From Trichlorobacter lovleyi SZ (GTDB lineage: Bacteria; Desulfobacterota; Desulfuromonadia; Geobacterales; Pseudopelobacteraceae): 32,000 nt of DNA. The stretch spans positions 3,885,762 to 3,917,761 of the forward strand of contig NC_010814.1 in the NCBI RefSeq assembly GCF_000020385.1, read 5' to 3'. Made by a program: the position numbers and the translations under genes. Every line of letters starts with the position of its first letter. The stretch's first letter is position 1. Positions 1-20,952 of the stretch are shown here, piece after piece. The notes beneath the pieces are model-generated. The model did no database searches. It was not told the origin of the DNA and worked only from the letters and a program-made list of their open reading frames with translations.

Positions 1-1
1 A

Positions 2-2535: not shown

Positions 2536-2540
2536 GGTGA

Positions 2541-3623: not shown

Positions 3624-3646
3624 CTGATATGACGCGTCTTTCCTGG

Positions 3647-3675: not shown

Positions 3676-3727
3676 CCAGACCCGCTGCAGATCACACCAC
3701 TAAATACACGCAAGTAAGGAACAAATA

Positions 3728-4210: not shown

Positions 4211-4233
4211 AACACTACCGCCGTACTTGAATG

Positions 4234-4261
4234 AAACGGCCCGGTGTAAACCGGGCCGTTT
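4234..4261. terminator. Bidirectional intrinsic terminator hairpin between convergent genes
   Basis: AAACGGCCCGG (4234-4244), loop tgtaaa, CCGGGCCGTTT (4251-4261). This is an 11-bp perfect stem flanked by an A-run and a T-run, lying between the stops at 4210 (+) and 4271 (-). Confidence 0.65.
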
Positions 4262-4270
4262 CTGTATCAA

Positions 4271-4825
4271 CTAGTCATTATCACGGCCATGGCCGCGGCC
4301 ATGTTTTTTGTGTTCCTTCCACTCCTCGCGCGCTTCCCGCTTGTCCTCCTTACGACGGTCCTTCTCATCCCGCCACTCTTCTCGTTCCTCCCGACCAGGC
4401 CGGAAATGTTTACCGCGGTAGTGATCACGATTCGCATGGTAGGCGCGGTACTCATGATCACGGTAGTAGCGGATCTTCTCCACCTTGTATCGTCTGACCG
4501 GTGCCGGGAGCTGCTCGTAGCGGGTTACCACCCAGGGACCGTTATAATGGTTGGCCCGATACCAGTGATTACCTTGAAAGAGGTAGTAGACGCCGGAAAT
4601 GAGAACCATGTCGTAGGACATATCAACTCCCACATAGAACCCCAGTGACGATGGCGCCAGAAAGAGCGGCGGCGCATCAAAGACCACCCGGGGCGCCACC
4701 ACAACCGTGGGAGGCGGCGGTACCGGCACTCCCAGATTAACATTAACATTGAAATTGGACTCAGCTGCTCCAAGTGACGGGACCGCCATAAGTGCTGCCA
4801 GGACCAGAGCTGTTGCGATTCGCAT
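4271..4825 (-). CDS. Hypothetical exported protein with an extremely charged R/E/K/H/D-rich C-terminal tail
   Basis: 184 aa. Signal peptide MRIATALVLAALMAVPSLGAAES. AGGAGG Shine-Dalgarno upstream. Pro-rich linker. Aromatic core GVYYLFQGNHWYRANHYNGPWVV. Last ~60 aa are nearly all charged (REEREEWRDEKDRRKEDKREAREEWKEHKKHGRGHGRDND). Confidence 0.6.
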   Translation of the reverse strand: MRIATALVLAALMAVPSLGAAESNFNVNVNLGVPVPPPPTVVVAPRVVFDAPPLFLAPSSLGFYVGVDMSYDMVLISGVYYLFQGNHWYRANHYNGPWVVTRYEQLPAPVRRYKVEKIRYYRDHEYRAYHANRDHYRGKHFRPGREEREEWRDEKDRRKEDKREAREEWKEHKKHGRGHGRDND

Positions 4826-4869
4826 CTGCTGTTTCCTCCTTATAATGGAATACTCTGCCTAAAGCATAT

Positions 4870-7386
4870 TCAGTGCCATGATTGGAAAAACTGCTCCATC
4901 CGGCTGAATACCTGATCCAGCGGAGCGATCAGTTGTGCGGCCTCAGGCAAAGACTTTCTGAAACGCGCACCATAATTCTTGGTGACCATCCGGCTATCAA
5001 GAATCAGCACGGCCCCACGGTCAGTCCGGCTGCGGATCAGGCGGCCAAAGCCCTGACGCAGCTTGAGCACCGCCTGGGGCACTGACATCTCACGGAACGG
5101 ATCGCCCCCCAGGCTGGTGATCCGCTCTGCCCTTGCCTGCTGGATCGGCTCTGTCGGCACCTGAAACGGCAGCCGGGCAATCACCACCAAGCGCAGGGCA
5201 TCCCCCTTGACATCCACCCCTTCCCAGAAAGAATCAGTACCGAACAGCACGGCATGCTGTTCCTTGCGGAAACGGGCCAACAGCTGGTGCCTGCCGCCCC
5301 CCTCACCCTGCCGCAATACCGTTATTCCCTGATTTTCCAGTTCAGCTTTAAGGGCAGCATGAGTCTGACGCAGCAGGTCAAAAGAGGTGAACAGCACAAA
5401 GGCGCCTCCCTGCGAGATGCTGATCGCCCGCAGCACTGCATCAGCCAATGGCTGGCGAAAGGCAAAACTGGTTGGGTCAGGTAGATCCCGGGGGATGGCC
5501 ACCAATGACTGCTCTGCATAATCAAAGGGTGAGGCCAGTGCCAGCTCCTGCAGCCGCTCCGACTCCAGCAGGTCAAGGCCGGTCCTTCTGCGCAGATAGC
5601 CGAATGAGCCACCCACGGTCAGGGTGGCTGAGGTCAGCACCACCGTGGGGATCGGATCAAGCAAAGCGGTCTTGATGGTCTCTGCCACATCCAGGGGTGC
5701 CACACAGACCGTGGCCTGGCTGCCCCGGCTGGTCTGCTTGGCCTCCAGCCAGCAGCAGGCCTCAGGATCATCAGTGCAGAACCAGGCCAGTTCACGGCTG
5801 ATCGCCACCAGACGCTGACCAATGCCAAAGGCGTCAGTTAACAGCCCGTTCACCGCCTGCATGACCGTGTCCGGCAGCTTGGCAGCAGCCCGGTCCAGTG
5901 CTCCCAGACCATCGGCCAGTTCCTGCAACTGCTCGCCCAGACGCTTCAGGCGGGTCTCCAGCTCATGCCAGAACGGTGTGGCACGCACCTCTGCGGTAAT
6001 CCTGCGCTTCAGCTCACCACCCCGCTGATCATCTCCTTGTTGCATTTCACCTTGCAAGGCCTGGGCAAGCCAGTCCAGCTCACGGTCAACCGCGCCTGCC
6101 AGCTCATGGACCTGGGGCAGTAGGGCAGCCTCGATCAGGCCGGATAGTTCCTGATACAGGGCATCCAGCTCTTCCGGTAGTTCCTTGCCGATCTTGGTGT
6201 TCAGTACGCTCAGGATGCCGGCTCTGCCACCGGATGGCGCCAGCCTTGACAGTTGCTTCATCAACCCGGCCCGGCTGATCCTGACTGACAAGGCGCCGGT
6301 GGCCGCCTCTTCCAGGTGGTGGGCCTCATCAATAATCAGACGGCTGAAGGGTGGCAGAATGGCAACCGCATCATAACCGCTCTCACGGCGCAGGGCGATA
6401 TCAGCCAGCAGCAGGGCGTGGTTGACCACCAGCAGCCGGGCTGAAGCGGCATCGCGGCGCGCCTTGTAGAAAAAGCAGCGGTTAAACTCCGGACAGCGGG
6501 AACGGCCACACTGGTCTGCCTCGCAACGCAGGTCATCCCAGACCTCCCAGGCAGGATGGAAGGAGAGATCGCTCAGGCAGCCGCTGCGAGTGGTTTCGCT
6601 CCAGGCAGCTATGGCCTGTAACTCCTCCGAAGCGCTGTCCGGGAACAGGGACGGCTCATCCAGCACCCCGCCCAGTTTGCGCAGGCAAAGGTAGTTGCCG
6701 CGCCCCTTGACCAGACAGGCGGTGAACTCCGTGGCAGCATGGCGTTGCAGCAGGGGAATATCCTTCTTGATCAGCTGTTCCTGCAGGTTGATGGTGTTAG
6801 TGGAGATCACCACCCGTTGATCATTACGCATGGCCCAGAGCAGGGCAGGCACCAGATAGGCCAGTGATTTGCCGGTGCCGGTACCGGCCTCAATCAGCGC
6901 CACGGTGTTGTCGTTAAAGGCGGTTGCCACGCTAAAGGCCATCCGCACCTGTTCATCCCGTTTTTCATACCCCTTAAGATGCTTAGCCAGCATCCCGTCA
7001 GAGCCAAAGACCTTTTCCAGCTCATCAAAATTAAGCCGTTCGCCGGTGCGGGGGGTATGGGGCGCCACCACCAGATAGCAACGCTGGCAGTCATTGTCGA
7101 TGATGCCGAAACCGATCCCGTTGTTGCCGCAGATCGAGGCCAGATCAAGATCAGCATCAGAGGGGATCAGCTCGCCGGAGGGGTGGTTGTGCAGCACCAT
7201 CTGGCCGGCCGAGGCGCGGGAGAGGATGGCCGGTACGGCGTGCTTATTGCCACGGGCAATGGCCTCGGCAGAGACCATCACACCATTGTCGTCCAGGCAG
7301 GCGATGAAGAAGACCTCATTACCACGGGCCTGTTTGATCTCAAAACGGATCAGGGCGCTGCAATCAGTTGAAAAGGTTGCGGGCAT
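4870..7386 (-). CDS. RadC-like JAB/MPN domain fused to a DinG/XPD-family Fe-S ATP-dependent DNA helicase
   Basis: 838 aa. The N-terminal ~110 aa carry a complete JAMM motif: upstream Glu in GNEVFF, then HNHPSGELIPSDAD (HxH-x7-S-xx-D). Helicase motifs: motif I AGTGTGKS, DEAH box IIDEAHHLEE. Cys cluster typical of the XPD/DinG 4Fe-4S domain (NYLC ... DQCGRSRCPEFNRC). C-terminal motifs TSATL, GTDSFWEGVDVKG, QGFGRLIRS. Confidence 0.85.
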   Translation of the reverse strand: MPATFSTDCSALIRFEIKQARGNEVFFIACLDDNGVMVSAEAIARGNKHAVPAILSRASAGQMVLHNHPSGELIPSDADLDLASICGNNGIGFGIIDNDCQRCYLVVAPHTPRTGERLNFDELEKVFGSDGMLAKHLKGYEKRDEQVRMAFSVATAFNDNTVALIEAGTGTGKSLAYLVPALLWAMRNDQRVVISTNTINLQEQLIKKDIPLLQRHAATEFTACLVKGRGNYLCLRKLGGVLDEPSLFPDSASEELQAIAAWSETTRSGCLSDLSFHPAWEVWDDLRCEADQCGRSRCPEFNRCFFYKARRDAASARLLVVNHALLLADIALRRESGYDAVAILPPFSRLIIDEAHHLEEAATGALSVRISRAGLMKQLSRLAPSGGRAGILSVLNTKIGKELPEELDALYQELSGLIEAALLPQVHELAGAVDRELDWLAQALQGEMQQGDDQRGGELKRRITAEVRATPFWHELETRLKRLGEQLQELADGLGALDRAAAKLPDTVMQAVNGLLTDAFGIGQRLVAISRELAWFCTDDPEACCWLEAKQTSRGSQATVCVAPLDVAETIKTALLDPIPTVVLTSATLTVGGSFGYLRRRTGLDLLESERLQELALASPFDYAEQSLVAIPRDLPDPTSFAFRQPLADAVLRAISISQGGAFVLFTSFDLLRQTHAALKAELENQGITVLRQGEGGGRHQLLARFRKEQHAVLFGTDSFWEGVDVKGDALRLVVIARLPFQVPTEPIQQARAERITSLGGDPFREMSVPQAVLKLRQGFGRLIRSRTDRGAVLILDSRMVTKNYGARFRKSLPEAAQLIAPLDQVFSRMEQFFQSWH

Positions 7387-7696
7387 GAAGATCAGGATTG
7401 TTCGTCAGACAATAAGTTCATATCTGAGTATGGTGCCGGGCGTATCTCCCCCAGCGACTTCAGGCAGGTCTTCCGGTCCTCATCACCCCCAAAAATCGTA
7501 GCGCGGTTGTTGTCGCGTTGCATAATCTGATATGGGTGACCAGGCGCTATGCTGCAGGCTGTTTTTAACATCGGTTGGATAGTAATGACAGTTATTCGCA
7601 TTGGCAATACAAATGTGGTGAATGGCCCGAATGGTGCGTTGTCGGCAATAGTACATGCACCTGAAAGCAACTCGACTCAACAGATGGTGTTCGCTA

Positions 7697-7724
7697 TTGA
7701 CAGCACACATCATTCCGCTAAGCT
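7697..7724 (+). promoter_or_regulatory. Weak candidate sigma-70 promoter for the kinase gene (TTGACA-16 nt-TAAGCT)
   Basis: Perfect -35 TTGACA at 7697-7702, 16-nt spacer, poor -10 TAAGCT at 7719-7724. It would leave almost no leader before the ATGs at 7726/7732, and no Shine-Dalgarno is visible there. Sequence match only. Confidence 0.25.
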
Positions 7725-7725
7725 A

Positions 7726-9447
7726 ATGCCTATGTTAAACAGAATCTGCTTTCTAATAATCATCATTTCATTTTTCGGTGGGTTGCCGCTCCATGCTGAG
7801 CAGGCTACCCCCGACAATGCCCATGTGATCGTCGTCGGAGGTAACAGCAACTACCCGCCCTATCAATTTATCGGCAAAAATGGCCAACCTGACGGATATA
7901 TTGTCGATCTGACCAAGGCGATTGCAGGCGTGATGGGGATGAAGATTGATATCCGCCTCGGAGATTTCGGGGGAATTCTGGATGAGTTGGAGAATGGCCG
8001 GATTGATATCCTTGAAGGTCTTTCCTATTCAGAAAGCAGGGCGCAGCACTACGATTTTTCCCCCCCGCACTCAATTATCGTGCATGCCATCTTTGCACGA
8101 AAGGGGACTAAAGAGGTTAAAACGCTGGATGAACTGCGGGGTAAAAAAGTGTTGGTGCATCGGGGTGGCGGTATGCACAGCTACATGAAGGAGCACAATT
8201 ACGCCCACGACCTAGTCCTGACCGATAGCCCGCGTGAAACCTTGCAACAGCTTGCCGTCGGCAAATGTGATTATGCCGTCGTGGCACTTTTGCCCGGTAT
8301 GTATATCATTCGCGAAGAAAACCTGACCAATATTGTGCCGATAGCCAAGAACATCATCCAGCAGCGTTACTATTGTTATGCGGTCAAAAAAGGAAATACC
8401 GAGCTCCTTGCCAGGTTTAACGAAGGGCTCACCATCCTTAAGAAAACCGGCCAGTACGATGCAATATATAACAAATGGCTGGGGGTACTGGAACCGCAAA
8501 GGGTTTCCTGGAGGGTTATTGCAAAATATGCCGCGTTAGTGGTGATTCCGCTTGTGTTGGTACTTATGGGAACGGTGCTCTGGTCTTATTCCCTGCGCAA
8601 GCAGGTGGCACAGCGAACAGAATCTCTTTCAAAGGCTCTGGTTGAGTTGCGCTCCAATCAGCAGCAACTTGTTCAAGCGGATAAAATGGCTGCGTTGGGA
8701 ATACTCGTGTCAGGCGTAGCCCACGAAATCAATAACCCGACCGGTATCATCCTGATGAATATGCCGACGCTGAGAAAGATTCTCCGCGATGCCGAGCGCA
8801 TTCTGGACCAATACCGCGAGGAGCATGGCGATTATTCGCTCGGCGGACTTTCGTACGAACGTGTGCGGCAGGAATTGCCGCTCCTTCTGGAAGAAATGCA
8901 GGATGGAGCAGAGCGAATCAAACATACCGTAAATGACCTTAAGAATTTTGCCCGCAAGGATGATGAAGCCGCCAAGGTGTTACTTGATTTCAATGCCGTG
9001 GTACAGACGGCGGTACGGCTGGTCGATGTAACAACCAGAAAAGCTACCAATAGTTTTACAACAAGCTATGCAGACAATCTTCCGGGGATCATGGGCAACG
9101 CGCAACGCATCGAGCAGGTGGTGGTGAACCTGATTATGAATGCCTGCCAGGCGCTTCCTGATCCCGGCCGTGCCATTGCCATCTCGACCCACTTTGATCC
9201 ACAAGCCAACGTCGTTGTCCTTACCGTCAAGGATGAAGGATCCGGCATTCCGCCGGAGCATCTGCCGCGTCTGACGGACCCTTTCTTTACCACCAAACGT
9301 GAAAGCGGGGGGACGGGATTGGGGCTCTCTGTCTCAGCCTCTATTATTAAGGATCACGGCGGAGAGCTTACCTTCGACTCAGCGCATGGTAAGGGAACGA
9401 CGGTTAAATGTACGTTTCAGGCCGCCATGGAGGGCAAGAAGCTGTGA
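7726..9447 (+). CDS. Sensor histidine kinase with a periplasmic family-3 solute-binding (Venus-flytrap) sensor domain
   Basis: The track ORF starts at 7549, but I place the start at ATG 7726 (or 7732). The signal/TM1 segment MPMLNRICFLIIIISFFGGLPLHA begins there, and the 59 upstream residues have no features. The SBP_bac_3-like domain runs from VIVVGGNSNYPPYQF to YNKWLG. It is followed by one TM, a coiled linker, H-box SGVAHEINNP and G-boxes KDEGSGI and GGTGLGLS. Confidence 0.85.
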   Translation: MPMLNRICFLIIIISFFGGLPLHAEQATPDNAHVIVVGGNSNYPPYQFIGKNGQPDGYIVDLTKAIAGVMGMKIDIRLGDFGGILDELENGRIDILEGLSYSESRAQHYDFSPPHSIIVHAIFARKGTKEVKTLDELRGKKVLVHRGGGMHSYMKEHNYAHDLVLTDSPRETLQQLAVGKCDYAVVALLPGMYIIREENLTNIVPIAKNIIQQRYYCYAVKKGNTELLARFNEGLTILKKTGQYDAIYNKWLGVLEPQRVSWRVIAKYAALVVIPLVLVLMGTVLWSYSLRKQVAQRTESLSKALVELRSNQQQLVQADKMAALGILVSGVAHEINNPTGIILMNMPTLRKILRDAERILDQYREEHGDYSLGGLSYERVRQELPLLLEEMQDGAERIKHTVNDLKNFARKDDEAAKVLLDFNAVVQTAVRLVDVTTRKATNSFTTSYADNLPGIMGNAQRIEQVVVNLIMNACQALPDPGRAIAISTHFDPQANVVVLTVKDEGSGIPPEHLPRLTDPFFTTKRESGGTGLGLSVSASIIKDHGGELTFDSAHGKGTTVKCTFQAAMEGKKL

Positions 9448-10856
9448 ATAATGATCTATATCCGGCATTTGGAGTGCTGCTTGTGGATGACGAACCGGCA
9501 TGGCTTCGTTCTCTCTCTCTTGCTCTGGAAAGCAACTCGGGGATTACCAATGTCGTGCTCTGCAAGGACAGCCGCGAGGTCATGGGCATCCTGGAGCGTC
9601 AGAATATCGGCCTTATCCTCCTTGATCTCACCATGCCGCATCTTTGCGGTGAAGAATTGCTGACACTCATTGGCGAGCAGTATCCCGATATCGCCACGAT
9701 TGTGGTAAGCGGTCTGAATCAGGTCGGTACGATTGTTACCTGCATGAAGCTTGGCGCATATGATTATTACGTTAAAACCGACGACGAAGAACGGATCGTC
9801 TGTGGTGTTCTCCGTGCCATTAAACTGCTGGAGTTGCAGCGGGACACCAAAGAGATGACACAACGCTTTGTGACATGCGAGTTGAAACACCCGGAAGCAT
9901 TTCATGCAATCTGTACCGTTGATCGTGCCATGCAGTCAATCTTTGCCTACATTGAGGCGGTGGCCCAAAGTCCACTACCGCTACTCATTACCGGAGAAAG
10001 CGGCGTTGGCAAAGAGCTCCTGGCCAAAGCGGCTCACGACCTCAGCGGATGCAAAGGAGAACTGGTTGCAGTAAACGTCGCCGGACTCGACGATACGGTT
10101 TTTGCCGACACCCTCTTCGGCCATGTCCGAGGTGCCTTCACCGGCGCGGAAAGTGTTCGCCGCGGCATGATCGAAGTGGCAACCAATGGAACGCTATTTC
10201 TCGATGAAATTGGTGATCTCAGCACGGCATCGCAGGTCAAGTTACTCCGCCTTATTCAGGAAGGGGAATATTTCCCGCTTGGCAGCGACCAACCCAAACG
10301 CCTCAAGGCGCGGATCATCGTTGCCACCCACCAGAATCTGGAAACAAAAGAGGCGTCCGGCGCGTTCCGCCGGGATCTGTTCTATCGGCTTCGCACCCAT
10401 CATGTTCTGATTCCACCACTACGCAAACGCATAGACGACCTTCCCTATCTGCTGGACCTCTTTCTGGAAGAAGCGGCTCGCACGCTGGGCAAAAAGAAGC
10501 CGACACCGCCGCCCAGCCTTGTGCCACTACTGTCTACCTACAGTTTTCCCGGTAACATCCGCGAGCTTAAGGCCATGATCTATGACGCCGTAAGTACACA
10601 CAAAGGTCATATGCTCTCGATGGATTCATTTCTAAAGGCCATCAACAACTCTTCAGAACATCCCGTGACGATGGCCAGTGTACCGGAGCATAATCCCTTT
10701 GCCTGCTTCGAGCGGCTGCCAACCTTTGCCAATGCCGCAACCTACCTTCTTGAAGAAGCGCTCACACGCGCCAAAGGCAATCAGACTCTGGCTGCCCGTC
10801 TGCTCGGTATTTCCCAGCCGTCTCTCTGGAAAAGACTCAAACTCGCACGTCGCTAA
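9444..10856 (+). CDS. Sigma-54-dependent (NtrC-family) response regulator: REC + AAA+ enhancer-binding domain + Fis-type HTH
   Basis: I chose the GTG at 9444, which overlaps the kinase TGA stop (GTGA) and gives VNNDLYPAFGVLLVDDEP. REC residues are DDE, the phospho-acceptor in LLDLTMP, and a conserved Lys in YVK. Walker A GESGVGKE. Intact sigma-54 contact loop GAFTGA. C-terminal HTH NQTLAARLLGISQPSLWKRLK. Confidence 0.9.
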   Translation: MNNDLYPAFGVLLVDDEPAWLRSLSLALESNSGITNVVLCKDSREVMGILERQNIGLILLDLTMPHLCGEELLTLIGEQYPDIATIVVSGLNQVGTIVTCMKLGAYDYYVKTDDEERIVCGVLRAIKLLELQRDTKEMTQRFVTCELKHPEAFHAICTVDRAMQSIFAYIEAVAQSPLPLLITGESGVGKELLAKAAHDLSGCKGELVAVNVAGLDDTVFADTLFGHVRGAFTGAESVRRGMIEVATNGTLFLDEIGDLSTASQVKLLRLIQEGEYFPLGSDQPKRLKARIIVATHQNLETKEASGAFRRDLFYRLRTHHVLIPPLRKRIDDLPYLLDLFLEEAARTLGKKKPTPPPSLVPLLSTYSFPGNIRELKAMIYDAVSTHKGHMLSMDSFLKAINNSSEHPVTMASVPEHNPFACFERLPTFANAATYLLEEALTRAKGNQTLAARLLGISQPSLWKRLKLARR

Positions 10857-10859
10857 ACA

Positions 10860-10900
10860 GCTATTGCCAAAGTCTATACTCTATAGATTTTGGCAATAGC
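10860..10900. promoter_or_regulatory. 41-bp nested palindrome; candidate upstream activator site for the sigma-54 regulator and/or a transcript-end hairpin of the kinase-regulator operon
   Basis: GCTATTGCCAAAGTCTATA-CTC-TATAGATTTTGGCAATAGC. That is 18 Watson-Crick pairs plus one G-T position around a 3-nt centre. It starts 4 nt after the regulator stop, and its centre lies about 165 bp upstream of the GG of the sigma-54 promoter. No U-tract follows. Confidence 0.45.
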
Positions 10901-10913
10901 CATTCTATCCCGG

Positions 10914-10993
10914 CCAATTACCTGCCTTTCAACACTTCCGCAATATCCCTCCATAGCCTGCGGCTATAACGGATACGTTCTGTCCAATTACCT
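10914..10993 (+). repeat. Exact 10-bp direct repeat CCAATTACCT (x2, 70 bp apart) bracketing a small palindrome in the control region
   Basis: CCAATTACCT at 10914-10923 and 10984-10993. ATAGCC-TGC-GGCTAT palindrome at 10953-10967 between them. An AT-rich tract follows (about 10986-11032). Confidence 0.4.
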
Positions 10994-11045
10994 TAATTTG
11001 TTTAAAACAATAGTAAATATAGGCTGTTGTGCATAAACGCCCCTT

Positions 11046-11061
11046 TGGCACCGTTCGTGCT
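11046..11061 (+). promoter_or_regulatory. Sigma-54 (-24/-12) promoter of the flavocytochrome operon
   Basis: TGGCAC-CGTTC-GTGCT matches TGGCAC-N5-TTGCW with exact GG-N10-GC spacing. It lies about 60 nt upstream of the ATG at 11124 and is followed by the strong Shine-Dalgarno AAAGGAGGAG (11111-11120). A sigma-54 activator gene sits immediately upstream. Confidence 0.6.
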
Positions 11062-11123
11062 CCTACTGTGATTGGAATTACTATCAAGGAGGACGCTTCG
11101 GATGTCACAAAAAGGAGGAGTTT

Positions 11124-12914
11124 ATGAGACTGTTTAGAGCAGGCACCGTACTACTTTGTTCGCTGGTTTTGCTGGTCGGAAGCTCGCAGGTGTGGGCAGA
11201 TGGAGGGACTTCAAAAACCACATTCCTGGCAGGTATTCACAAAAAGAACCAGATGAGTTGTGCCGATTGTCATGGCAAATCTCTTGCCGTTGATGACAGC
11301 GAGACGGTTCTAAACAAAAAATGTGTTGAATGCCATGGGACATTTGCAAGTCTTGCAAGCAAGAAAAAAGAACATATCAATCCGCATAAGTCCCACCTGG
11401 GAGAGGTCAACTGTACCACGTGCCACAAGGGACATACGGCGTCCAAGGCGTACTGCAATTACTGCCATTCGTTCGGTATGAAAATCCCTGCTATGGGCAG
11501 CGTCGAACAGTCCAATAGTAAAAAATGGATTCAGGAAACAGCTCCCAAAAAATCTGACACAGCCAAGACTGTTACGGAACGTGCCGACATTGTTGTTATC
11601 GGTGCCGGTGGCGCCGGTTATGTGGCTTCGATCACTGCCCATGACGCCGGAGCCAAGGTAATCCTCTTGGAAAAGATGCCGATAACCGGTGGAAACAGCA
11701 TGCTTGCAGCAGGCGGCATTAATGCGGCAGCAACACGAATCCAGAAAGAACGCGGCATTCAGGATGATCCGGCTGAAATGGTTAAAGAGACCATGAAAGG
11801 CGGAAGAGAAAAGAACGACCTTGAACTGGTAAAAATCCTCTCGTACCGTTCATCCGACGCAGTTGATTTTCTGGTATCCCTTGGCGCAGACATGAGCGAT
11901 TTGGTGCGCTCAGGCGGTGTACACGCCGACAGAACCCACAGACCTGTAGGCGGAGCAGCGGTAGGCCCCCATCTGGTAAAAGTCTACAGAGAAAATGCTG
12001 CTAAACGCAACATTGACGTACGCGTAAATTCTGAAGTCGTAAAGATCCTCACTGACAAAAACGGCAGGGTAACCGGCGTACAGGTAAAAGGTAAACACAG
12101 AGGGTTGTACACCATAAAGGCTAAAGCGGTAATCGACACAGCAGGCGGTTTTGCTGCAAACAATGATCTGGTTGGTTTTTACAAACCGCAGTTCAAAGAA
12201 ACAGCTTCTTCAAACCAGCCCGGCGCAACCGGAGAAGGTGTTGTTCTGGCTGAAAAAATTGGTGCAAAAGTGATCGACATGGAGCAGATCCAGATCCATC
12301 CGACCATGGGCGGCGAAACCAAGGTGCTTGTCTCTGAAACGGTTCGGGGCAGCGGCGCCATTCTGGTAAATCATGCGGGCAAGCGTTTTGTTAATGAGCT
12401 GACAACCCGCGACAAAGCCTCAGCAGCAATCTTTGCACAGCCGGAGAAGACAGCATTTCTTGTCCTTGGCGAAGATATCCGCAAGAGCAATGTGCAGATA
12501 GACGGGTATATCGAGCTCGGCCTCGTACAAGAATCCGATTCAATTGAAGGATTAGCAACAAAGATGGGCGTTCCTGCCGCAACCCTTGCCGCAACAATTG
12601 CATCATACAACAAGGCCTATGACGCAAAGAATGACCCTGAGTTCAAACGTCAAGACATCCCGCGAAAAATTGCCGGTCCCAAGTACTATTCCATCTGGGT
12701 TAAGCCAGGCCGCCATCACACTATGGGCGGCGTCAAAATCAATACGGAAGGTCAGGTAATCAGCACAAATGGCACACCGGTGGTTGGTCTGTATGCCGCC
12801 GGAGAGGTTACCGGTGGCGTCCATGGCTGGAACCGGCTGGGTGGCAACGCCATTACCGATACTGTTGTGTTCGGTCGTATCGCCGGGGCAAGTGCAGCCA
12901 AATTTGTCAAGTAG
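11124..12914 (+). CDS. Exported tetrahaem flavocytochrome c, soluble fumarate-reductase-like (Shewanella FccA/Fcc3 type)
   Basis: 596 aa. Signal peptide MRLFRAGTVLLCSLVLLVGSSQVWA. Four CxxCH sites (CADCH, CVECH, CTTCH, CNYCH). FAD dinucleotide fold DIVVIGAGGAGYVAS. Fcc3 active-site blocks QIHPT, SETVRGSGAILVN, LTTRDKA, RHHTMGGV and WNRLGGNAI. Confidence 0.85.
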   Translation: MRLFRAGTVLLCSLVLLVGSSQVWADGGTSKTTFLAGIHKKNQMSCADCHGKSLAVDDSETVLNKKCVECHGTFASLASKKKEHINPHKSHLGEVNCTTCHKGHTASKAYCNYCHSFGMKIPAMGSVEQSNSKKWIQETAPKKSDTAKTVTERADIVVIGAGGAGYVASITAHDAGAKVILLEKMPITGGNSMLAAGGINAAATRIQKERGIQDDPAEMVKETMKGGREKNDLELVKILSYRSSDAVDFLVSLGADMSDLVRSGGVHADRTHRPVGGAAVGPHLVKVYRENAAKRNIDVRVNSEVVKILTDKNGRVTGVQVKGKHRGLYTIKAKAVIDTAGGFAANNDLVGFYKPQFKETASSNQPGATGEGVVLAEKIGAKVIDMEQIQIHPTMGGETKVLVSETVRGSGAILVNHAGKRFVNELTTRDKASAAIFAQPEKTAFLVLGEDIRKSNVQIDGYIELGLVQESDSIEGLATKMGVPAATLAATIASYNKAYDAKNDPEFKRQDIPRKIAGPKYYSIWVKPGRHHTMGGVKINTEGQVISTNGTPVVGLYAAGEVTGGVHGWNRLGGNAITDTVVFGRIAGASAAKFVK

Positions 12915-12944
12915 GATCGCGCGTTACTAACAACGCAAGTAAAT

Positions 12945-12979
12945 GGAGTTCCTGAGCTCATGGGGAGTTCAGGAACTCC
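12945..12979 (+). other. Intercistronic stem-loop between the flavocytochrome and MFS genes (no U-tract)
   Basis: GGAGTTCCTGAGCTC (12945-12959), loop ATGGG, GAGTTCAGGAACTCC (12965-12979). The 15-bp stem includes one G-U. It starts 31 nt after the flavocytochrome stop and is followed by ACACCC rather than a T-run. Confidence 0.5.
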
Positions 12980-13017
12980 ACACCCAGGCTTTGAGAAGCA
13001 TCCGAGAGGTTATACCT

Positions 13018-14262
13018 ATGGAAACCCGTAGTCTGTTTCGGGCACTGTTCCTGATCAACTTCGCCATCACCCTCGGTTTTGGCATTGCCGACGCATTCTT
13101 CTCTATGTACGTTTTCAGCCTGGGAGCCAGGGGCATCCTTCTGGTGCTGCCGCTGGTACTCTATTCACTCTCAAAGATTCTCTTCAGCCCTTTTATGGGG
13201 GCCTGCTCCGACAAGATAGGACCAAGAAGAATTGCTTCCATCAGTCTCGGTCTCTATCTACTCGTATCAATCTGCTATTTCTTCACTACCAGTCTGATGC
13301 TTATCACCATTATGCGCCTGTTTCAGGGGATCGGCTGCGCAATGTTCAGACCGTTGGTTGCCTCTCTTGTGGGTGAGAGGACGACAAGTGAAAAACGTGC
13401 AACCGTCTTGGGGACCTTTGACATTTCCTTTTACGGTGCTTTAAGCGTCGGGCCGGTTGTCGGCGGAATACTCAAGGATATCTGGGGCTTTGAGGGGATT
13501 TTTGCAGTGCTGACGCTGCTTTGCATCGTGGCGCTGTTGGTGGCACTGTTTTACATTCCTGCACAAAGACTCTCCAAGAACCATGCGGCAGAACGCAAAA
13601 CGGAAAACCAATGCAAGTGCAGGACTATTTTTACGATGGCCCGGCAAAACTCCCTACGGGGGCTTCTTGCCTTCATCTTTGGCCGGGCCTGCGGGATATC
13701 GCTGCTGAGTGCCTTCCTGCCGATACTGCTAACAACCAAGCTCGGATTGAGCGGCATACAGACCGGATTGGTGATGGCCTCCGGCTCCCTGGTATTCACC
13801 CTCCTCCTGCGGCCAATCGGCATGCTTTCAGATAAGACACCGCGCAAGCCTCTGATTGTCGCCGGCGGCACCATCGTATCGTTGCTCTACTTTCTGATAC
13901 CTGTTGTGTCCGGATTTAGCCAGATACTGTTCCTGGGGTTGGGAATAGGCATGTTCAGCGTGCTCTCTCAGCCCGCCTGTACAACGCTCCTGATAGAAGA
14001 GGGAGTCCGTCACGGCATGGGGTTAACCGTTGGAATCTTTAATTCGGTGCTGAACCTGGGGTTTATTGCGGGTCCGTTATTCGGAGCAGGTATGCAACAC
14101 ACGTTCGGCCTGTCCTCGGTTTTTTATGCCGCTGGAATCTTGGGGTTTGTTGCAGTTGGACTGTTTATCACAACAATCGTGTCAGAGGATACGCCATCTT
14201 CAGCGCTTTTCCTTGAGAAGGGCGACGTCACACTATCTTACGTAACATCAGAAAAGCTGTAA
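13018..14262 (+). CDS. Major facilitator superfamily (MFS) transporter, about 12 TM segments
   Basis: Start moved from 12943 to ATG 13018. A GAGAGG Shine-Dalgarno lies 7 nt upstream, TM1 begins immediately (METRSLFRALFLINFAITLGF), and the 12943 ATG sits inside the hairpin. Two six-helix halves are separated by a basic central loop (QRLSKNHAAERKTENQCK). Confidence 0.8.
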   Translation: METRSLFRALFLINFAITLGFGIADAFFSMYVFSLGARGILLVLPLVLYSLSKILFSPFMGACSDKIGPRRIASISLGLYLLVSICYFFTTSLMLITIMRLFQGIGCAMFRPLVASLVGERTTSEKRATVLGTFDISFYGALSVGPVVGGILKDIWGFEGIFAVLTLLCIVALLVALFYIPAQRLSKNHAAERKTENQCKCRTIFTMARQNSLRGLLAFIFGRACGISLLSAFLPILLTTKLGLSGIQTGLVMASGSLVFTLLLRPIGMLSDKTPRKPLIVAGGTIVSLLYFLIPVVSGFSQILFLGLGIGMFSVLSQPACTTLLIEEGVRHGMGLTVGIFNSVLNLGFIAGPLFGAGMQHTFGLSSVFYAAGILGFVAVGLFITTIVSEDTPSSALFLEKGDVTLSYVTSEKL

Positions 14263-14300
14263 TCAAGAAATACAACTATTTAAACCAAAGGAGCTCACAC

Positions 14301-15608
14301 ATGAAATTTGCAAAACTTGGTTTGGCGGGGATAATCGTTGCTGGCCTTGCGACCAGTTCGTATGGAGCAGACTCACTGTTTGATGCCTTTAAAAACGGGA
14401 AAACAAACGGGGAGCTCAGGGCATGGTATTTTGATAGAAAAGTAGAAAATGCCCCTACTAGTTCAGCAGGCATCTTCACTACCGCGGCAATATTAGGCTA
14501 TGTTACTGATACTTTTTACGGTTTTAGCTTAGGAGGAACATTTGAGGCAGTCTATGCTCCTGAGGCTAGTTCTGGTGCAAAGAATGTTTACAAAAGCGAC
14601 ATGTACGCCTCAGGTGCAGTTCTTTCAGAGGCGTATTTACAATATGGCATAGCGAAAACGGCAGTTAAAGCCGGACGGCAATATATTTCTACGCCGTTGG
14701 TTACCGGAAGCGGTACGAGAATTGTTAAAGAATCCTTTCAAGGGGCTATGCTTACCAGTAAAGACCTCTCTGATACGACGATAACCGGAGGCTATATTAA
14801 TAAGTTTCAAGGTAGAACCGGCTATGCCACAGGAGATTCCGTGGGTGATGCTCCGGATTTCGCCTCAAGATCAATATTCCTTGGTATTTCAGGGTCAACA
14901 ACCTATGAATTTAATGGAGCTTACACCGTTGCGGTTATTAACAAGTCCATTCCAAACCTGACACTGACTGGACAATATCTTAATGTGGGCGACGTGAAGG
15001 TCGGTACAAAGAAATCAGATATCCATGTCTATTATACTGATGCTAAATACTTACTCCCAATGGATGGGTACAAATTGGAATTTGCTCTTAACTTTCGCGG
15101 ATCGCAGACAGAGGATCCACTATCTGCTACAATAAAGTATAATGGTACGTATGCTGCTGGTAAAATTGCGGTCAGCGAGCTGGCAGGATTTGGAGCAAGC
15201 TTTGTTGCCGCAACAACCAGCCGTGATGATGCAGTGATAGCCGGTATGGGGAACGGCCCTTCAAGTTACACGGCAACACTGATAAGGGCAAGTACAGCCA
15301 CCTTGACAGCCAATACCAATTCGTACCGGTGCGATGTGACTTATGATTTTTCAAAAATCGGTCTTGCCGGGCTTAAAGGTGCATTGCAGTATGGTTGGAC
15401 AAATCAAAACAGAGTAGGGACGGCAGCAACCAGTTCAGATTATACTTCATATGCAGGGAGTTTGGATTACGCTGTTCCTCTGCTTAAGGGGCTGTCTTTG
15501 GCAGTACAGTATGAAAAACAGGAGAATGAGACCACGAAGTATACCTCCAATACCAAAACCTCCATTGACACCGATGAGTTGCGAATTAAACTGGCCTATA
15601 AATTCTGA
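14301..15608 (+). CDS. Outer-membrane beta-barrel porin, OprD-family-like
   Basis: 435 aa. AAGGAG Shine-Dalgarno. Signal peptide MKFAKLGLAGIIVAGLATSSYGA. N-terminal signature DSLFDAFKNGKTNGELRAWYFDRK resembles the OprD-family start. Alternating beta-strand pattern with a terminal aromatic residue (LRIKLAYKF). Confidence 0.7.
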   Translation: MKFAKLGLAGIIVAGLATSSYGADSLFDAFKNGKTNGELRAWYFDRKVENAPTSSAGIFTTAAILGYVTDTFYGFSLGGTFEAVYAPEASSGAKNVYKSDMYASGAVLSEAYLQYGIAKTAVKAGRQYISTPLVTGSGTRIVKESFQGAMLTSKDLSDTTITGGYINKFQGRTGYATGDSVGDAPDFASRSIFLGISGSTTYEFNGAYTVAVINKSIPNLTLTGQYLNVGDVKVGTKKSDIHVYYTDAKYLLPMDGYKLEFALNFRGSQTEDPLSATIKYNGTYAAGKIAVSELAGFGASFVAATTSRDDAVIAGMGNGPSSYTATLIRASTATLTANTNSYRCDVTYDFSKIGLAGLKGALQYGWTNQNRVGTAATSSDYTSYAGSLDYAVPLLKGLSLAVQYEKQENETTKYTSNTKTSIDTDELRIKLAYKF

Positions 15609-15643
15609 AAGCCTCTTGTCGAAATTGCACTTGCTTTATGACA

Positions 15644-15675
15644 AAGCCTCCGGGGTAGTAAAGTCCCGGAGGCTT
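15644..15675. terminator. Terminator hairpin shared by the convergent porin (+) and ABC-F (-) genes
   Basis: AAGCCTCCGGG (15644-15654), 10-nt loop, CCCGGAGGCTT (15665-15675). The 11-bp perfect stem is followed by GTTG on the plus strand (weak U-tract). Confidence 0.55.
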
Positions 15676-15713
15676 GTTGCCTAACCCTCACCCCCACTTT
15701 CCCTAGGGTGAAA

Positions 15714-17663
15714 TTATGACAACTCCTCCCACTGCGCGTACAGTTCCTCAAGCCTGGTGTTCAGTGCTGTATGCTGCTCACCGGCAGCCAGCCCTTGCTC
15801 AGGATCATCAAAGAAGCCGGGCCTGTTCATCTCTGCCTCAAGCTCAGCAATTTTTTGCTCAACCGTGGCGATCTCCTTCTCAATCGACTGTTGCTGTTTC
15901 TCCCGTGCCTGTTCTTCCTTTTTACGACGTTTCTGTTCTTCACGATCTTTAAGACGGTCTTCCTTATTCTGGGGGGGTAGCAACGCTACAGCGGATACGT
16001 TTGGTGCCGGTTCGGCTGCCGTCTTGATCTGGCGCGCTGATGCAACAGGTGTCTGGGCTGATTCGCTCTCTTTTTTTGATAAATAGTATTCGTAATCGCC
16101 GTAATAATCGGTCAGCTTGCCTTCGCCAACCTCTACAATCCGCGTTGCCAGACCGTTCACAAAGTAGCGGTCGTGGGAGACAAACACCACGGTGCCGTCA
16201 AAGCCCTTCAGGGCATCCAGCAGCACCTCTTTGCTGAACAGGTCCAGGTGGTTGGTGGGCTCATCCATCAGCAGCAAGTTAGAGGGACGCAGCAGCATCT
16301 TGGCCAGGGCCAGGCGGTTACGTTCACCACCGGACAGCACCCCCACCTTTTTATGGATGTCATCACCGGAAAACAGGAACGCCCCCAGGATATCCCGCAG
16401 CTTGGGTACCATCTCGTAGGGGCAGTCACTGTACAGCTCATCATAGGCGGTTCTGGTGGCATCCAGCACATTGGCCTGATCCTGGGCAAAGTAATCAGCC
16501 ACCACATTATGGCCTGGCTTCAAGCTGCCTTCCTGATACTCGCCACCGGCCAGTACGGCCATCAGGGTGGATTTTCCTGCCCCGTTATGCCCCACCAAGG
16601 CAACCCGTTCCCCTTTTTCAACGGTCAGATCAACCTTGTTCAGGACAACATTGCTTCCGTAGCTGCGGGTCAGCCCCTGCAGTTCCAGCACAATCCTGCC
16701 ACTCTTGGGGGCATCAGGAAACTGGAAGCGGATCTTCTTGCGCTCCGGCGGCAGTTCAATCCGTTCCACCTTCTCCAGCTGCTTGATCCGTGACTGCACC
16801 AGTGAGGCCTTGTTGGCCTGATAGCGGAAGCGGCGGATAAAGTCTTCGGTCTTCTGGACCTCTTCATCCTGCAGCCGTTTGGCCTCCCGTAGGGCAGAGA
16901 CCCGCTCTTCCCGTTGGATCAGGTAGGTGGAGTAGGAACAGTGGTAGTCGGCAATGGTGTGGTTCCAGACCTCGGCGATGCGGGAGCAGACCTGATCCAT
17001 GAAGAAACGGTCGTGGGAGACCAGGATAACAGAACCGGGGTAGGAGCAGAGATACTGTTCAAGCCAGTTGCGGGCCTCGATATCCAGGTGGTTGGTCGGT
17101 TCGTCCAGCAGCAGCACATCCGGTTTCTGCAGCAGCAGCCTGGCCAGGGCGATCCGCATCTGCCAACCACCGGAAAACTCGCCGCAGTCCTTGTGCCAGT
17201 CTTCCTGGCTGAACCCCAGACCTTTCAGCACGGTGCCGATCTCGGCCTCCATGGTGTAGCCGCCACGATGGCGGAACTGTTCCTGCAGTTCACCATAACG
17301 TGCCAGCAGGGCATCATGTCCGGCTGCATCGTGGGGCATCTGCTCCAGTTCCTGTCCCAGGCGGTGCAGTTCTTCTTCCAGCACCAGCAGTTCTGACAGG
17401 GCCGAACGGGCCTCGTGGAACAGCATCCGGCCACTGCTGACAATACCATCCTGCGGCAGATAGGCGGCCCTGGCACCCTTGGCCAGCTGGATATCACCGT
17501 TGCTTGATTCCTCAAGCCCGGCAATGATCTTCATCAGGGTGGATTTACCGGCCCCGTTTTCGCCGATCAGGGCCACCCGCTCACCCTTACGCAGGTGCCA
17601 GGAGATGTTCGCAAACAGAACACGACCGGAATAGTCTTTAGAAAGATTAACGAGTTGGAGCAT
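15714..17663 (-). CDS. ABC-F family ATPase (Uup/YheS-like, no membrane domain)
   Basis: 649 aa. Two ABC cassettes (Walker [10 protein letters not shown] and GHNGAGKST; signatures LSGGWQMR and LSGGERNR). Inter-domain linker. K/E-rich coiled C-terminal extension. Confidence 0.9.
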
Positions 17664-17666
17664 AAT

Positions 17667-18356
17667 TTAGTCTTGGTGTGCGGTGTCTGAGATAATCGAA
17701 CCATCGCGGAAGGTAATCCGGCGGGAGGCATATTCTGCCACTTCCGGTTCATGGGTAATCATCACAATGGTAATCCCCTGTTGGTTCAGGTCTGTGAACA
17801 GCTGCATGATTTCATGGGTGGTGGTGGTGTCCAGGTTGCCGGTTGGCTCATCAGCCAGGATCACGGCCGGTTCGTTGACCAGCGCGCGGGCGATCGCCAC
17901 CCGTTGCTGCTGTCCGCCGGAGAGCTGTGCACTGGTGTGATTAACCCGTTCACCCAGACCAACACGTTCAAGCGCAGCTGTAGCCCGCTGGTGACGCTCT
18001 GCTGCTGAAACCCCGGCATAGACCAACGGCAGTTCCACGTTTTCAAGGGCCGTGGTGCGGGGCAACAGGTTAAAGCCCTGGAACACAAAGCCCAGTTTTT
18101 TGTTGCGCACCTCGGCAAGGCTGTCCGGGGTCATCCCGGCAGTATCAATGCCGTCCAGCCAGTAGGTACCGCTGGTGGGTTTATCCAGACATCCCAGGGT
18201 ATTCATGCAGGTGGATTTACCACTACCGGAAGCACCCATGATCGCCACAAACTCCCCCACGCTGATGGTAAAGGAGACCCCCCGCAGCGCCTCAACGGTG
18301 TGGTCACCCTCGCCGAACACGCGGCGGATATTTTCCAGTTTGATGACGTCAGGCAT
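17667..18356 (-). CDS. ABC transporter ATP-binding protein, MacB/LolD/FtsE-like; no cognate permease gene adjacent
   Basis: 229 aa. Walker A GASGSGKST, signature LSGGQQQR, Walker B ILADEPTGNLD. The N-terminal pattern IKLENIRRVFGEG...VEALRGVSF is typical of FtsX-partner ATPases. Confidence 0.85.
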   Translation of the reverse strand: MPDVIKLENIRRVFGEGDHTVEALRGVSFTISVGEFVAIMGASGSGKSTCMNTLGCLDKPTSGTYWLDGIDTAGMTPDSLAEVRNKKLGFVFQGFNLLPRTTALENVELPLVYAGVSAAERHQRATAALERVGLGERVNHTSAQLSGGQQQRVAIARALVNEPAVILADEPTGNLDTTTTHEIMQLFTDLNQQGITIVMITHEPEVAEYASRRITFRDGSIISDTAHQD

Positions 18357-18358
18357 GG

Positions 18359-18820
18359 TTAGTGGTGGTATGGCTCGTTATTCAGGATGGTGCAGGCCCG
18401 ATAGATCTGTTCAAGCAGGAACGGGCGCACCATCTGGTGGGTAAAGGTCATGGCGGAAAGTGCCAGCACCTTGCCGGCACGGCTGCGGACTTCATCGCTG
18501 AAGCCGTAGGAACCGCCAATGGCAAAGACCAGCTCGGTGGTACCACTGTCACGATGTTTGCCGATAAATTCAGCAAATTTGACGGAATCCAGCTGCTGGC
18601 CCCGTTCATCCAGTGCCACCAGCACCGCGTTGGGGGAAAGCTGTTTCAGTAACCGCTCACCTTCGCGACGGCGCCCTTCTTCAAGGGTGGCATCCTTCTC
18701 ATCTTTCAGTTCATCAATGGCCAACGGCAGGTAGCGTTCAATCCGCCCGCTATACTCCGTAACCCCCTGCTTGATCCAGGGGTCACGGGTCTTTCCAAGC
18801 CAGATAATACGGAGCTTCAT
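18359..18820 (-). CDS. rlmH: 23S rRNA (pseudouridine1915-N3)-methyltransferase RlmH (SPOUT)
   Basis: 153 aa. Typical RlmH layout and length (MKLRIIWLGKT..., FAIGGSYGFS, LSAMTFTHQMVR). Conserved position downstream of rsfS. Confidence 0.9.
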   Translation of the reverse strand: MKLRIIWLGKTRDPWIKQGVTEYSGRIERYLPLAIDELKDEKDATLEEGRRREGERLLKQLSPNAVLVALDERGQQLDSVKFAEFIGKHRDSGTTELVFAIGGSYGFSDEVRSRAGKVLALSAMTFTHQMVRPFLLEQIYRACTILNNEPYHH

Positions 18821-18832
18821 GGCATTTGCCGA

Positions 18833-19887: not shown

Positions 19888-19895
19888 GGCTGTTC

Positions 19896-20936: not shown

Positions 20937-20952
20937 CAGTGTCTCCTAGTTG

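Follow-up and report, generated by a model that had tools for sequence, protein, structure and literature searches.

Soluble periplasmic flavocytochromes c that carry four c-type haems and a flavin adenine dinucleotide (FAD)-binding domain of the FAD_binding_2 family are represented by FccA/Fcc3 and Ifc3 of Shewanella (Protein Data Bank [PDB] IDs: 1D4C, 1QJD, and 1QO8). The fccA gene of Shewanella is monocistronic and controlled by CRP. In S. frigidimarina, Reyes-Ramirez et al. are said to have found in 2003 a tetrahaem flavocytochrome gene clustered with a porin gene and a dedicated regulator gene (ifcA–ifcO–ifcR); the regulator is reportedly of the LysR type, and the genes are reportedly monocistronic and Fe(III)-responsive, with no major facilitator superfamily (MFS) gene among them. 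The methacrylate reductase system Mrd/Mcc of Geobacter sulfurreducens AM-1 and the acrylate reductase ArdAB of S. woodyi belong to the same superfamily and are likewise periplasmic, with a tetrahaem electron supply. Here, we describe a locus of Trichlorobacter lovleyi SZ in which a flavocytochrome of the FccA type is encoded together with a two-component system, an MFS permease, and a porin. The stretch analyzed, hereafter the window, comprises 32,000 nucleotides (contig NC_010814.1, positions 3,885,762 to 3,917,761 of the forward strand), and all coordinates are given within it unless stated otherwise.

The control of this locus also has known relatives. In DctB/DctD-type sigma-54 systems, a periplasmic sensor kinase and an NtrC-family activator act on a dicarboxylate operon with a −24/−12 promoter and upstream dyads; the DctB sensor has a double PDC fold, not a Venus-flytrap fold, and the target is an uptake transporter. 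The HK29–dcuB locus of G. sulfurreducens has a kinase and a regulator orthologous to those of the window and the same layout of dyad and −24/−12 elements downstream of the regulator gene. The target of HK29 there is an inner-membrane fumarate/succinate exchanger feeding the cytoplasm-facing FrdCAB, whereas the genes downstream in T. lovleyi encode a periplasmic reductase and a porin. In contrast to the Shewanella enzymes, the flavocytochrome of this Desulfuromonadales host lies in a predicted operon with the MFS and porin genes under a sigma-54 two-component system. In our view, the block is probably a cassette that moves horizontally, carries its own regulation, and serves fumarate respiration in the periplasm; it is located in a hotspot between an ABC-F gene and a JAB-DinG gene, and its MFS permease probably exports FAD.

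The block consists of five contiguous plus-strand genes (7726-15608), which are the exceptions in a region (4870-31701) where all other long open reading frames (ORFs) of Pfam families lie on the minus strand. A preliminary description of this DNA had seen in these five genes, set in a minus-strand housekeeping region, a sigma-54-controlled module that senses a small molecule, lets it enter, and reduces it in the periplasm. The ORF listing and profile hidden Markov model (HMM) scans agree with this layout, all of its family assignments (SBP_bac_3, Sigma54_activat, FAD_binding_2, multihaem cytochrome, MFS_1, and OprD) were correct, and the overall reading is backed by synteny, by the HMM matches, and by footprinting of its palindrome and promoter.

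The third gene (11124-12914, plus strand) encodes a tetrahaem flavocytochrome c with a Cytochrom_c3_2 domain (residues 38-116), a FAD_binding_2 domain (residues 155-576), and four CxxCH motifs, and its score with TIGR01813 was 509 bits against a cutoff of 285. The N-terminus, MRLFRAGTVLLCSLVLLVGSSQVWA/DG, is a Sec-type signal peptide and contains no twin-arginine (RR) motif. The same protein (YP_001953845.1; 596 aa) has been listed in a published survey as Sec, 25 aa, with four haems (PMC4427408). Its alignments with FccA (1D4C; E = 2e-176), Ifc3 (1QO8; E = 2.5e-168), and Fcc3 (1QJD) extend over the full length, with approximately 55% identity to these proteins by eye. Pfam, the CxxCH count, and the signal peptide thus agree with the exported four-haem FAD reductase recognized in the preliminary description. 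Unlike this fused and Sec-exported enzyme, the flavin subunits of Mrd and ArdA are exported by Tat with the cofactor pre-bound and work with a separate cytochrome.

The first gene (7726-9447, plus strand) encodes a sensor histidine kinase with one periplasmic SBP_bac_3 (Venus-flytrap) domain (E = 8.6e-34) between two transmembrane segments, together with HisKA and HATPase_c domains and no further sensor domain; homologues of 571-573 aa support its start at 7726. The sensor domain is 63% identical over 230 residues (E = 1e-87) to the structure deposited as PDB ID 3H7M, whose sequence is that of G. sulfurreducens P0275, the HK29 Venus-flytrap kinase. The second gene (9444/9408-10856, plus strand) encodes an NtrC-family response regulator with Response_reg, Sigma54_activat (E = 1.6e-53), and HTH_8 domains. 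Its GAFTGA loop is intact, and the Walker A motif and a Fis-type helix–turn–helix (HTH) with the motif ISQPSLWKRLK are present. The GTG at 9444 overlaps the TGA stop of the kinase gene, and the gene call on L001 gives 470 aa. The Pfam and NCBIfam matches and the translation are as proposed for a kinase with a sole SBP_bac_3 sensor and a GTGA-overlapped activator. HK29-type kinase and sigma-54 regulator genes stand directly upstream of dcuB in both G. sulfurreducens and G. pickeringii. The RpoN −24/−12 promoter of G. sulfurreducens dcuB (GSU2751) was mapped by primer extension (Leang et al., PMC2725144), and DcuB is described as essential for fumarate respiration in this organism (PMC2725144). 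Because the orthologous pair adjoins dcuB, the signal sensed by the kinase of the window is probably fumarate.

The 267-bp region between the regulator and flavocytochrome genes (10857-11123) contains three conserved elements. UAS1, a 41-bp palindrome (10860-10900) with 19-nt arms that are 95% complementary, follows directly after the regulator stop codon; with a fold z-score of −9, it is a candidate enhancer site and possibly also an RNA hairpin. Its outer arms, TATTGCC...GGCAATA, are invariant across five orthologous regions, and in Citrifermentans bremense the substitutions are symmetric (AAAG/CTTT to GGAG/CTCC). UAS2 (10953-10967), a dyad of the form ATAGCC-TGC-GGCTAT, is a candidate second enhancer site. 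The predicted sigma-54 promoter, TGGCACcgttcgTGCT (11046-11061, plus strand), has the form TGGCAC-N6-TGCT with GG-N10-GC spacing, and 62 nt separate its −12 element from the downstream ATG of the flavocytochrome gene, for which there is a good ribosome-binding site. Phylogenetic footprinting was performed on six loci (the window, L089, L087, L157, L096, and the G. sulfurreducens dcuB locus). A dyad ATA(A/G)CC-N2-4-GG(T/C)TAT begins 95-101 nt after the regulator stop and a TGG(C/T)A (−24) element 189-194 nt after it in all six. The palindrome and correctly spaced promoter pointed out earlier prove to be conserved. The half-site co-varies with the HTH helix: loci with ATAGCC have ISQPSLWKRLK, whereas G. 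sulfurreducens, with ATAACC, has ISQPALSKRLK, a parallel change that connects the dyads with this regulator. The sigma-54 pattern matched three times in the window, against 0.36 expected. One of the other two matches, TGGTACGTATGCTGCT (15143-15158, plus strand), lies inside the porin gene and is probably a chance match.

The last gene (14301-15608, plus strand) encodes an OprD-like outer-membrane porin (Pfam OprD PF03573; E = 4.6e-13; score of 49.4 bits, cutoff 25). It has a signal peptide (MKF...SSYGA/DS) and a C-terminal Phe (the protein ends in KF), and the porin assignment stands on these features together with the Pfam score; the NCBIfam Opr model matched the N-terminal part only, below its cutoff. 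Homologous cassettes can have one kind of outer-membrane channel in place of another: OprD, Porin_O_P, Phenol_MetA_deg, and others occur. The gap between the flavocytochrome and MFS genes is 103 bp and that between the MFS and porin genes is 38 bp, and no convincing promoter was found in either. The former gap holds a hairpin (12944-12980, plus strand) with a 16-bp stem and no U-tract (fold z-score of −3.5). L089 and L087 also have a hairpin at this position, with a different sequence, which means that the structure is conserved and the sequence is not, and this element is likely a partial terminator or an mRNA stabilizer. A second hairpin (15644-15675; 12-bp stem; z-scores of −3.3 on the plus and −2.6 on the minus strand) lies between the convergent porin and ABC-F genes, where a hairpin closing the block had been predicted. 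It is part of the island, and its homologue in L089 (14537-14577) is followed by a TGCCTAA tail. Canonical intrinsic terminators and sigma-70 promoters occurred in the block in numbers near chance; the strong hairpins lack U-tracts.

The fourth gene (13018-14262, plus strand) encodes a DHA1-like MFS permease (MFS_1; E = 1.3e-46). An alternative start at 12943 was rejected, as it falls inside the hairpin. The alignment of the family shows motif A (GxxSDRxGRR) with an invariant D65 and the antiporter motif C (GPvvGG) with P146, G149, and G150. When the family profile was compared with the PDB, the best match was NorA (8e-26), followed by YajR, EmrB, QacA, VMAT2, and MdfA, all of which are exporters or antiporters; matches to symporters were 1e-6 or weaker and covered half of the protein, with a marginal resemblance to DgoT. 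The family is sharply bounded, with members from 37% identity upward and the next sequences at 32% or less. Its hosts are T. lovleyi, Oryzomonas, Geomonas, Citrifermentans, Geobacter sp. FeAm09, Desulfuromonas acetoxidans, and one Shewanella, and G. sulfurreducens and G. metallireducens have no entry among the 120 family matches at E ≤1e-20. This distribution agrees with that of the flavocytochrome homologues in the published survey (PMC4427408).

The genomic context of the permease was examined in 30 loci, obtained from a metagenome profile scan and six named genomes, in which the MFS protein was at least 44% identical and the upstream sequence extended for 1.5 kb or more. A gene for a periplasmic flavoprotein or a small tetrahaem cytochrome lies upstream on the same strand in 22 of the 30, ribBA stands immediately upstream in nine, and one or the other kind of gene (ribBA or flavoprotein/cytochrome) is found in 26. 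L102, L103, L163, and D. acetoxidans have genes for a cytochrome, a flavoprotein, and an outer-membrane channel, then ribBA (with or without a small ORF), and last the MFS gene. In L093, the order is ribBA, a hemerythrin-like ORF, MFS, and ribH, with no reductase nearby. A conserved ORF of approximately 145 aa is present in 14 of the 30 loci; three His residues, an Asp, and a Glu are invariant in it, and its matches to the NCBIfam model bact_hemeryth (E = 1e-8 to 1e-12) stay below the cutoff, and the Pfam scan of it gave no match. The module of ribBA, this ORF, and MFS was observed in L093 (3984-7829), L102 (3411-6423), L103 (4338-7224), L106, L107, L163, and L175 (5746-8206), and the hemerythrin-like ORF suggests a possible iron- or oxygen-linked control of flavin export. 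In three of these loci, the Rfam family V_AS9, a Vibrio antisense RNA, scored above the gathering threshold antisense to ribB (L102 3676-3779, L103 4435-4538, and L106 4431-4534, minus strand); these matches are probably artefactual and due to conservation of the ribB coding sequence.

The partner enzymes of the permease comprise fused flavocytochromes and split flavoproteins. The split ones are 25-35% identical to the fused type and have quite different active-site residues, and all 11 whose N-termini were checked carry Sec-type rather than twin-arginine signal peptides, unlike Mrd and ArdA. The similarity of the permease itself tracks the lineage of the host and not the enzyme: it is 70-74% identical to those of Oryzomonas-type loci, which contain other reductases or rib genes, versus 59% to that of the orthologous Citrifermentans cassette.

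In Shewanella, Bfe exports FAD to the periplasm (PMC3551548). From the gene context, we infer that the permease of the block is a flavin or FAD exporter and a functional analogue of Bfe, not a substrate transporter. The preliminary description had rightly seen that a purely periplasmic reaction does not need a cytoplasmic-membrane MFS and had left its role unexplained; flavin export is now proposed for it. A Sec substrate crosses the membrane unfolded and without FAD, so an exporter would supply the cofactor to the apo-enzyme. The proposed role, FAD delivery to the periplasm for a Sec-exported flavocytochrome, is that of S. oneidensis Bfe, but Bfe is a MATE protein (a homology test between the two was negative) and is unlinked to fccA, whereas the role of the MFS protein is read from its context. 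Literature searches aimed at these points turned up neither a named Geobacter flavin exporter nor anything specific on a link of MFS proteins or FAD to periplasmic flavoproteins. Alternatively, the permease may handle the substrate or product of the reductase, either by taking up succinate or fumarate or by expelling a toxic unsaturated acid toward the periplasmic enzyme, with no role in flavin supply. Co-transcription with a reductase and a porin would be the classic pattern of a substrate transporter, and efflux of an electrophilic acid would fit both the DHA1 resemblance and the presence beside diverse reductases. However, ribBA directly adjoins the gene in nine of the 30 loci, the MFS gene of L093 stands between ribBA and ribH without a reductase, the partner reductases have unrelated active sites, the similarity of the permease follows the host lineage rather than the enzyme type, and the resemblance to an anion:cation symporter (DgoT) is marginal. 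We therefore regard a substrate transporter as doubtful. The wider proposal, that these proteins form a previously unrecognized family of dedicated FAD exporters maturing Sec-exported periplasmic flavoreductases, often with an extra RibBA and a hemerythrin-like protein, seems to us evenly balanced between right and wrong. Two broader formulations were rejected: the flavocytochrome and this permease are not one orthologous pair everywhere, since the MFS protein of the T. lovleyi paralogue is EntS-like, and flavoprotein linkage does not extend to every family member, as shown by a subgroup of 36-41% identity located at LIV-type ABC genes.

To survey the junction at which the block lies, the DinG protein was scanned against one genome per species, and the returned loci were compared by tblastn and blastn. 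Compared with the closest related genome (L007), the block is an 8,352-bp indel (7375-15726). In the blastn alignment, window positions 2616-7374 correspond to 1-4764 and positions 15727-25690 to 4791-14749 of the reverse complement of L007; the two genomes are collinear on both sides, with flanks of approximately 88% nucleotide identity and a DinG protein that is 97% identical, and 26 bp in L007 stand where the window has 8,352 bp. At this empty site, the ABC-F stop codon, one nucleotide, and the DinG start codon follow one another (TGAgATG), and the two genes are predicted to be translationally coupled. The block is thus missing precisely where a synteny check suggested in the preliminary description finds JAB-DinG abutting ABC-F. 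In L012 (Geobacter sp. UBA6169; DinG 88% and ABC-F 94% identical), homology is broken at the same two points as in L007, and the DinG ATG comes one nucleotide after the stop of a preceding gene (TGAtATG). The junction there holds 6.5 kb of other DNA (1780-8312 of L012) encoding a MacB-type efflux system (HlyD, an ATPase, and two FtsX permeases) and three toxin–antitoxin modules (ParE, PIN, and HEPN/MNT). Homology to the window also ends at the DinG start in L008-L011 and L013. The ABC-F/DinG junction is, by this comparison, a hotspot for variable cargo, and the block is not a universal feature of this locus among relatives: the site is empty in L007 and has other cargo in L012.

The entire block is collinear, with 78% nucleotide identity, in L089, a metagenome-assembled genome of the Desulfuromonadaceae with different flanks. 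The block proteins are 81-88% identical to those of L089 (OprD 76% and MFS 77%), versus 75% for the flanking ABC-F. The sigma-54 regulator gene of L089 (8335-9747) is broken into ORFs of 313 and 150 aa, which may be either a pseudogene or an assembly error. C. bremense has a cassette of the same parts, with a porin of the Porin_O_P type located upstream of the flavocytochrome gene, and its flavocytochrome has 80%-identical homologues in Geomonas. Within T. lovleyi, the exact protein was found on 10 contigs with the same gene order and flanks, and the block is fixed at this site within the populations of the species. Passages on genomic islands in Wagner et al. 2012 (PMC3403914) do not mention the region.

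The block has an atypical composition, as genomic islands do, and a few core genes are equally low in G+C content at third codon positions (GC3). The GC content is 50.0% in the block versus 55.7% in the rest of the window (DinG, 60.5%; ABC-F, 56.7%), and GC3 is 0.39-0.61 for the block genes versus 0.59-0.76 for most neighbors, with yidC at 0.51 and rnpA at 0.52. Hand counts in the preliminary description had the direction right, including the low values of yidC and rnpA, but their values were only roughly correct. The block may instead be ancestral at this locus and have been deleted or replaced in L007 and L012. The L089 block does lie in a broadly related neighborhood, with an hyp4271 homologue on one side and an ABC-F orthologue 6 kb away, neither mobility genes nor target-site repeats accompany the block, and the low GC3 of yidC and rnpA fits the same view. 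Against this, the empty site is a coupled TGAgATG, three different states exist at one junction, the block proteins are closer to L089 than is the flanking ABC-F (75%), the homologous cassette of Citrifermentans lies in unrelated contexts, and GC3 within the block falls to 0.39. We judge an ancestral block unlikely and prefer its acquisition; the Mrd system was likewise acquired horizontally.

The final codons and stop of ABC-F (TTATGACAACTCCTCC) are imperfectly repeated 78 bp inside the island, before the terminator hairpin (15636-15651 versus 15714-15729). Past the ABC-F TAA (15676-15716), there is an in-frame TAG at the site homologous to the stop codon of an ABC-F paralogue, the one flanking the block in L089. 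These features at the right end of the island may be left over from the end of a donor gene or from the recombination junction.

With respect to the substrate, the residues H365, S377, E378, R381, R402, HH504/505, and R545 (Fcc3 numbering) are all present in the clade of the window protein, so that the substrate-binding and proton-delivery residues of FccA/Ifc3 are all conserved. Relative to FccA, M236 is replaced by Ile, M375 by Leu, and T377 by Ser; L375 and S377 are shared with Ifc3, and the clade of the T. lovleyi paralogue has T377 and HY. In the acrylate reductase ArdA, the ligands of the C4-carboxylate are kept, whereas the His and Thr(Ser) that bind the C1-carboxylate give way to Gly and Tyr (Bertsova et al., bioRxiv 10.1101/2024.02.11.579808). 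The ligands of both the C1- and C4-carboxylates are retained here, and by the ArdA criterion the protein would therefore be a fumarate reductase. The small unsaturated carboxylate of the preliminary description can be refined accordingly: with an FccA-type active site intact, the substrate is likely, and most probably, fumarate. According to the published genome description, fumarate supports the growth of strain SZ, and roles are unassigned for the seven pfam00890 proteins of this strain (PMC3403914). Another α,β-unsaturated acid (acrylate, methacrylate, urocanate, itaconate, mesaconate, or the like) could be both the substrate and the ligand of the sensor. The family includes other specificities, such as those of ArdAB and UrdA, the M236I, M375L, and T377S replacements distinguish the protein from FccA, the DNA half-site is unlike the G. 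sulfurreducens dcuB type, the sensor is merely 63% identical to HK29, and T. lovleyi already has a dcuB-linked paralogue. Nevertheless, H365 with S/T377, H504 with R545, and the proton path of R402, E378, and R381 are intact, Ifc3, deposited as a fumarate reductase, has L375 and S377 as well, and the known monocarboxylate reductases have replaced their C1-carboxylate ligands; a different acid is thus quite unlikely. FccA of Shewanella has a second role in carrying electrons through the periplasm, and Fe(III) induces ifcA, but although positions 375 and 377 are slightly more Ifc3-like, a dedicated periplasmic ligand sensor, a porin, and an intact catalytic site point to a soluble substrate and make it very improbable that the protein is mainly an electron carrier or buffer, or an Ifc3-like iron-responsive protein, rather than a terminal fumarate reductase.

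Here, we propose how a fumarate-respiration cassette of this kind would operate. The C4-dicarboxylate would enter the periplasm through the OprD-like porin and be sensed there by the SBP_bac_3 Venus-flytrap domain of the kinase, which would phosphorylate the NtrC-type regulator. The regulator would then bind the two dyad enhancers, approximately 165 and 90 bp upstream, and open the sigma-54 promoter at 11046-11061. The flavocytochrome, MFS, and porin genes would be read on one transcript, on which the hairpin after the flavocytochrome gene would attenuate or stabilize the message, leaving the reductase in excess over the pump. The flavocytochrome would be exported unfolded by Sec and receive its haems in the periplasm, and the co-transcribed efflux-type MFS protein would export FAD or another flavin and so load the apo-enzyme. 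The mature protein would reduce fumarate to succinate with electrons from a periplasmic or quinol-linked cytochrome network.

Several observations weigh against this scheme. With regard to transfer, the Pfam and NCBIfam scans detected no integrase or transposase domain in any block ORF, as had been noticed before, no tRNA or other Rfam match was obtained in the window, and the search for flanking repeats gave nothing convincing, only a 16-nt imperfect repeat near the right end; insertion by way of flanking repeats or mobility genes was accordingly dropped. With regard to the signal, the flytrap domain of 3H7M was crystallized in a closed and unliganded form (PMC4352136), and in Oryzomonas sagensis a 56%-identical kinase stands beside unrelated genes. 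With regard to the transcript, the hairpin at 12944-12980 could be a full terminator, which would leave the MFS and porin genes on a separate transcript. With regard to flavin export, Shewanella lacking bfe grew on fumarate at the wild-type rate (PMC3551548), which means that a dedicated FAD exporter is not strictly required in that host, no FMN riboswitch or other Rfam element was found in the window or seven related loci, the more distant members of the MFS family (36-41% identity) lie beside LIV-type ABC genes and not beside flavoproteins, and the MFS protein beside the T. lovleyi paralogue belongs to the different, EntS-like family. Finally, a second T. lovleyi operon with dcuB, a paralogous flavocytochrome gene, and this MFS gene could be the main fumarate system of the organism.

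This second operon (L090 5650-13053) has the order dcuB, fcc2 (60% identical to the flavocytochrome of the window), and the EntS-like MFS gene. It has dyads of the G. sulfurreducens ATAACC type and the promoter TGGCACtgttgCTGCT, and instead of a two-component system, it adjoins the gene of a sigma-54 activator of 857 aa that has cNMP-binding and Fer4_5 domains. Cross-talk of the island regulator with its dyads is possible. In the distant MFS subgroup (L121, L124-L132, L137, and others), the permease gene lies downstream of a LIV-type ABC transporter (Peripla_BP_6 and BPD_transp_2), and next, within approximately 300 bp, comes either a small ORF resembling cytochrome c3 or a larger protein of the multihaem kind.

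On the left, the block is separated from DinG (minus strand) by a divergent intergenic region of 339 bp (7387-7725), which must hold the promoters for both the kinase–regulator operon (plus strand) and DinG. Since the insertion would have cut DinG off from ABC-F, DinG would now need to be driven from this new region; sigma-70-like matches, which are consensus matches only, were found on the minus strand at 7738-7709 and 7607-7579. The TGAnATG junction of L007 and L012 is not kept in the window, and the translational coupling of DinG would thus be lost. A CCTGA sequence survives 5 nt upstream of the DinG ATG (7387-7400), where it ends a mini-ORF of nine codons. At the other end of the DinG gene, a second perfect sigma-54-type element, TGGCACTGAATATGCT (4863-4878, minus strand), overlaps the stop codon. 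L007 and L008 have the identical element and L010 a near-identical one. In the window, it lies 38 nt upstream of an ORF (4271-4825, minus strand) whose 184-aa product is exported, has a highly charged C-terminus, and matches no Pfam family. The minus-strand neighbors with Pfam assignments are JAB-DinG, ABC-F, an ABC ATPase, RlmH, RsfS, a NadD-like protein, Arn-like epimerase, formyltransferase, and GT2 proteins, RNase D, an MqnC-like radical SAM enzyme, and a thioesterase. Next come RsmG, MnmG, MnmE, YidC, and RnpA, which are named by length and gene order alone.

The FccA-type reductase, the HK29/NtrC-type sigma-54 system, and the porin are each of a known kind, and what is new here is the probable link of the sensor family to fumarate respiration and the candidate for FAD supply. 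For T. lovleyi SZ, the locus offers a concrete candidate for the periplasmic fumarate reductase among the seven pfam00890 proteins counted in the genome description, and this candidate sits on a strain-variable island. The ligand-orphan HK29 sensor family would be connected to fumarate respiration in two wirings, one through dcuB and a cytoplasm-facing reductase and the other through a periplasmic reductase and a porin. The cassette is compact (8.3 kb) and self-regulated, which makes it attractive for engineering periplasmic reductions. The MFS family is a specific and knock-out-ready candidate for the periplasmic FAD supply of Sec-exported flavoproteins. If the proposal is true, the locus would represent a recurrent plug-in cassette in which the sensor, the outer-membrane channel, and the Sec-exported flavoreductase are swapped and the cofactor pump is kept, and the pump would be the counterpart of Shewanella Bfe in relatives of Geobacter and Desulfuromonas and a candidate route for the reported flavin secretion of Geobacter.

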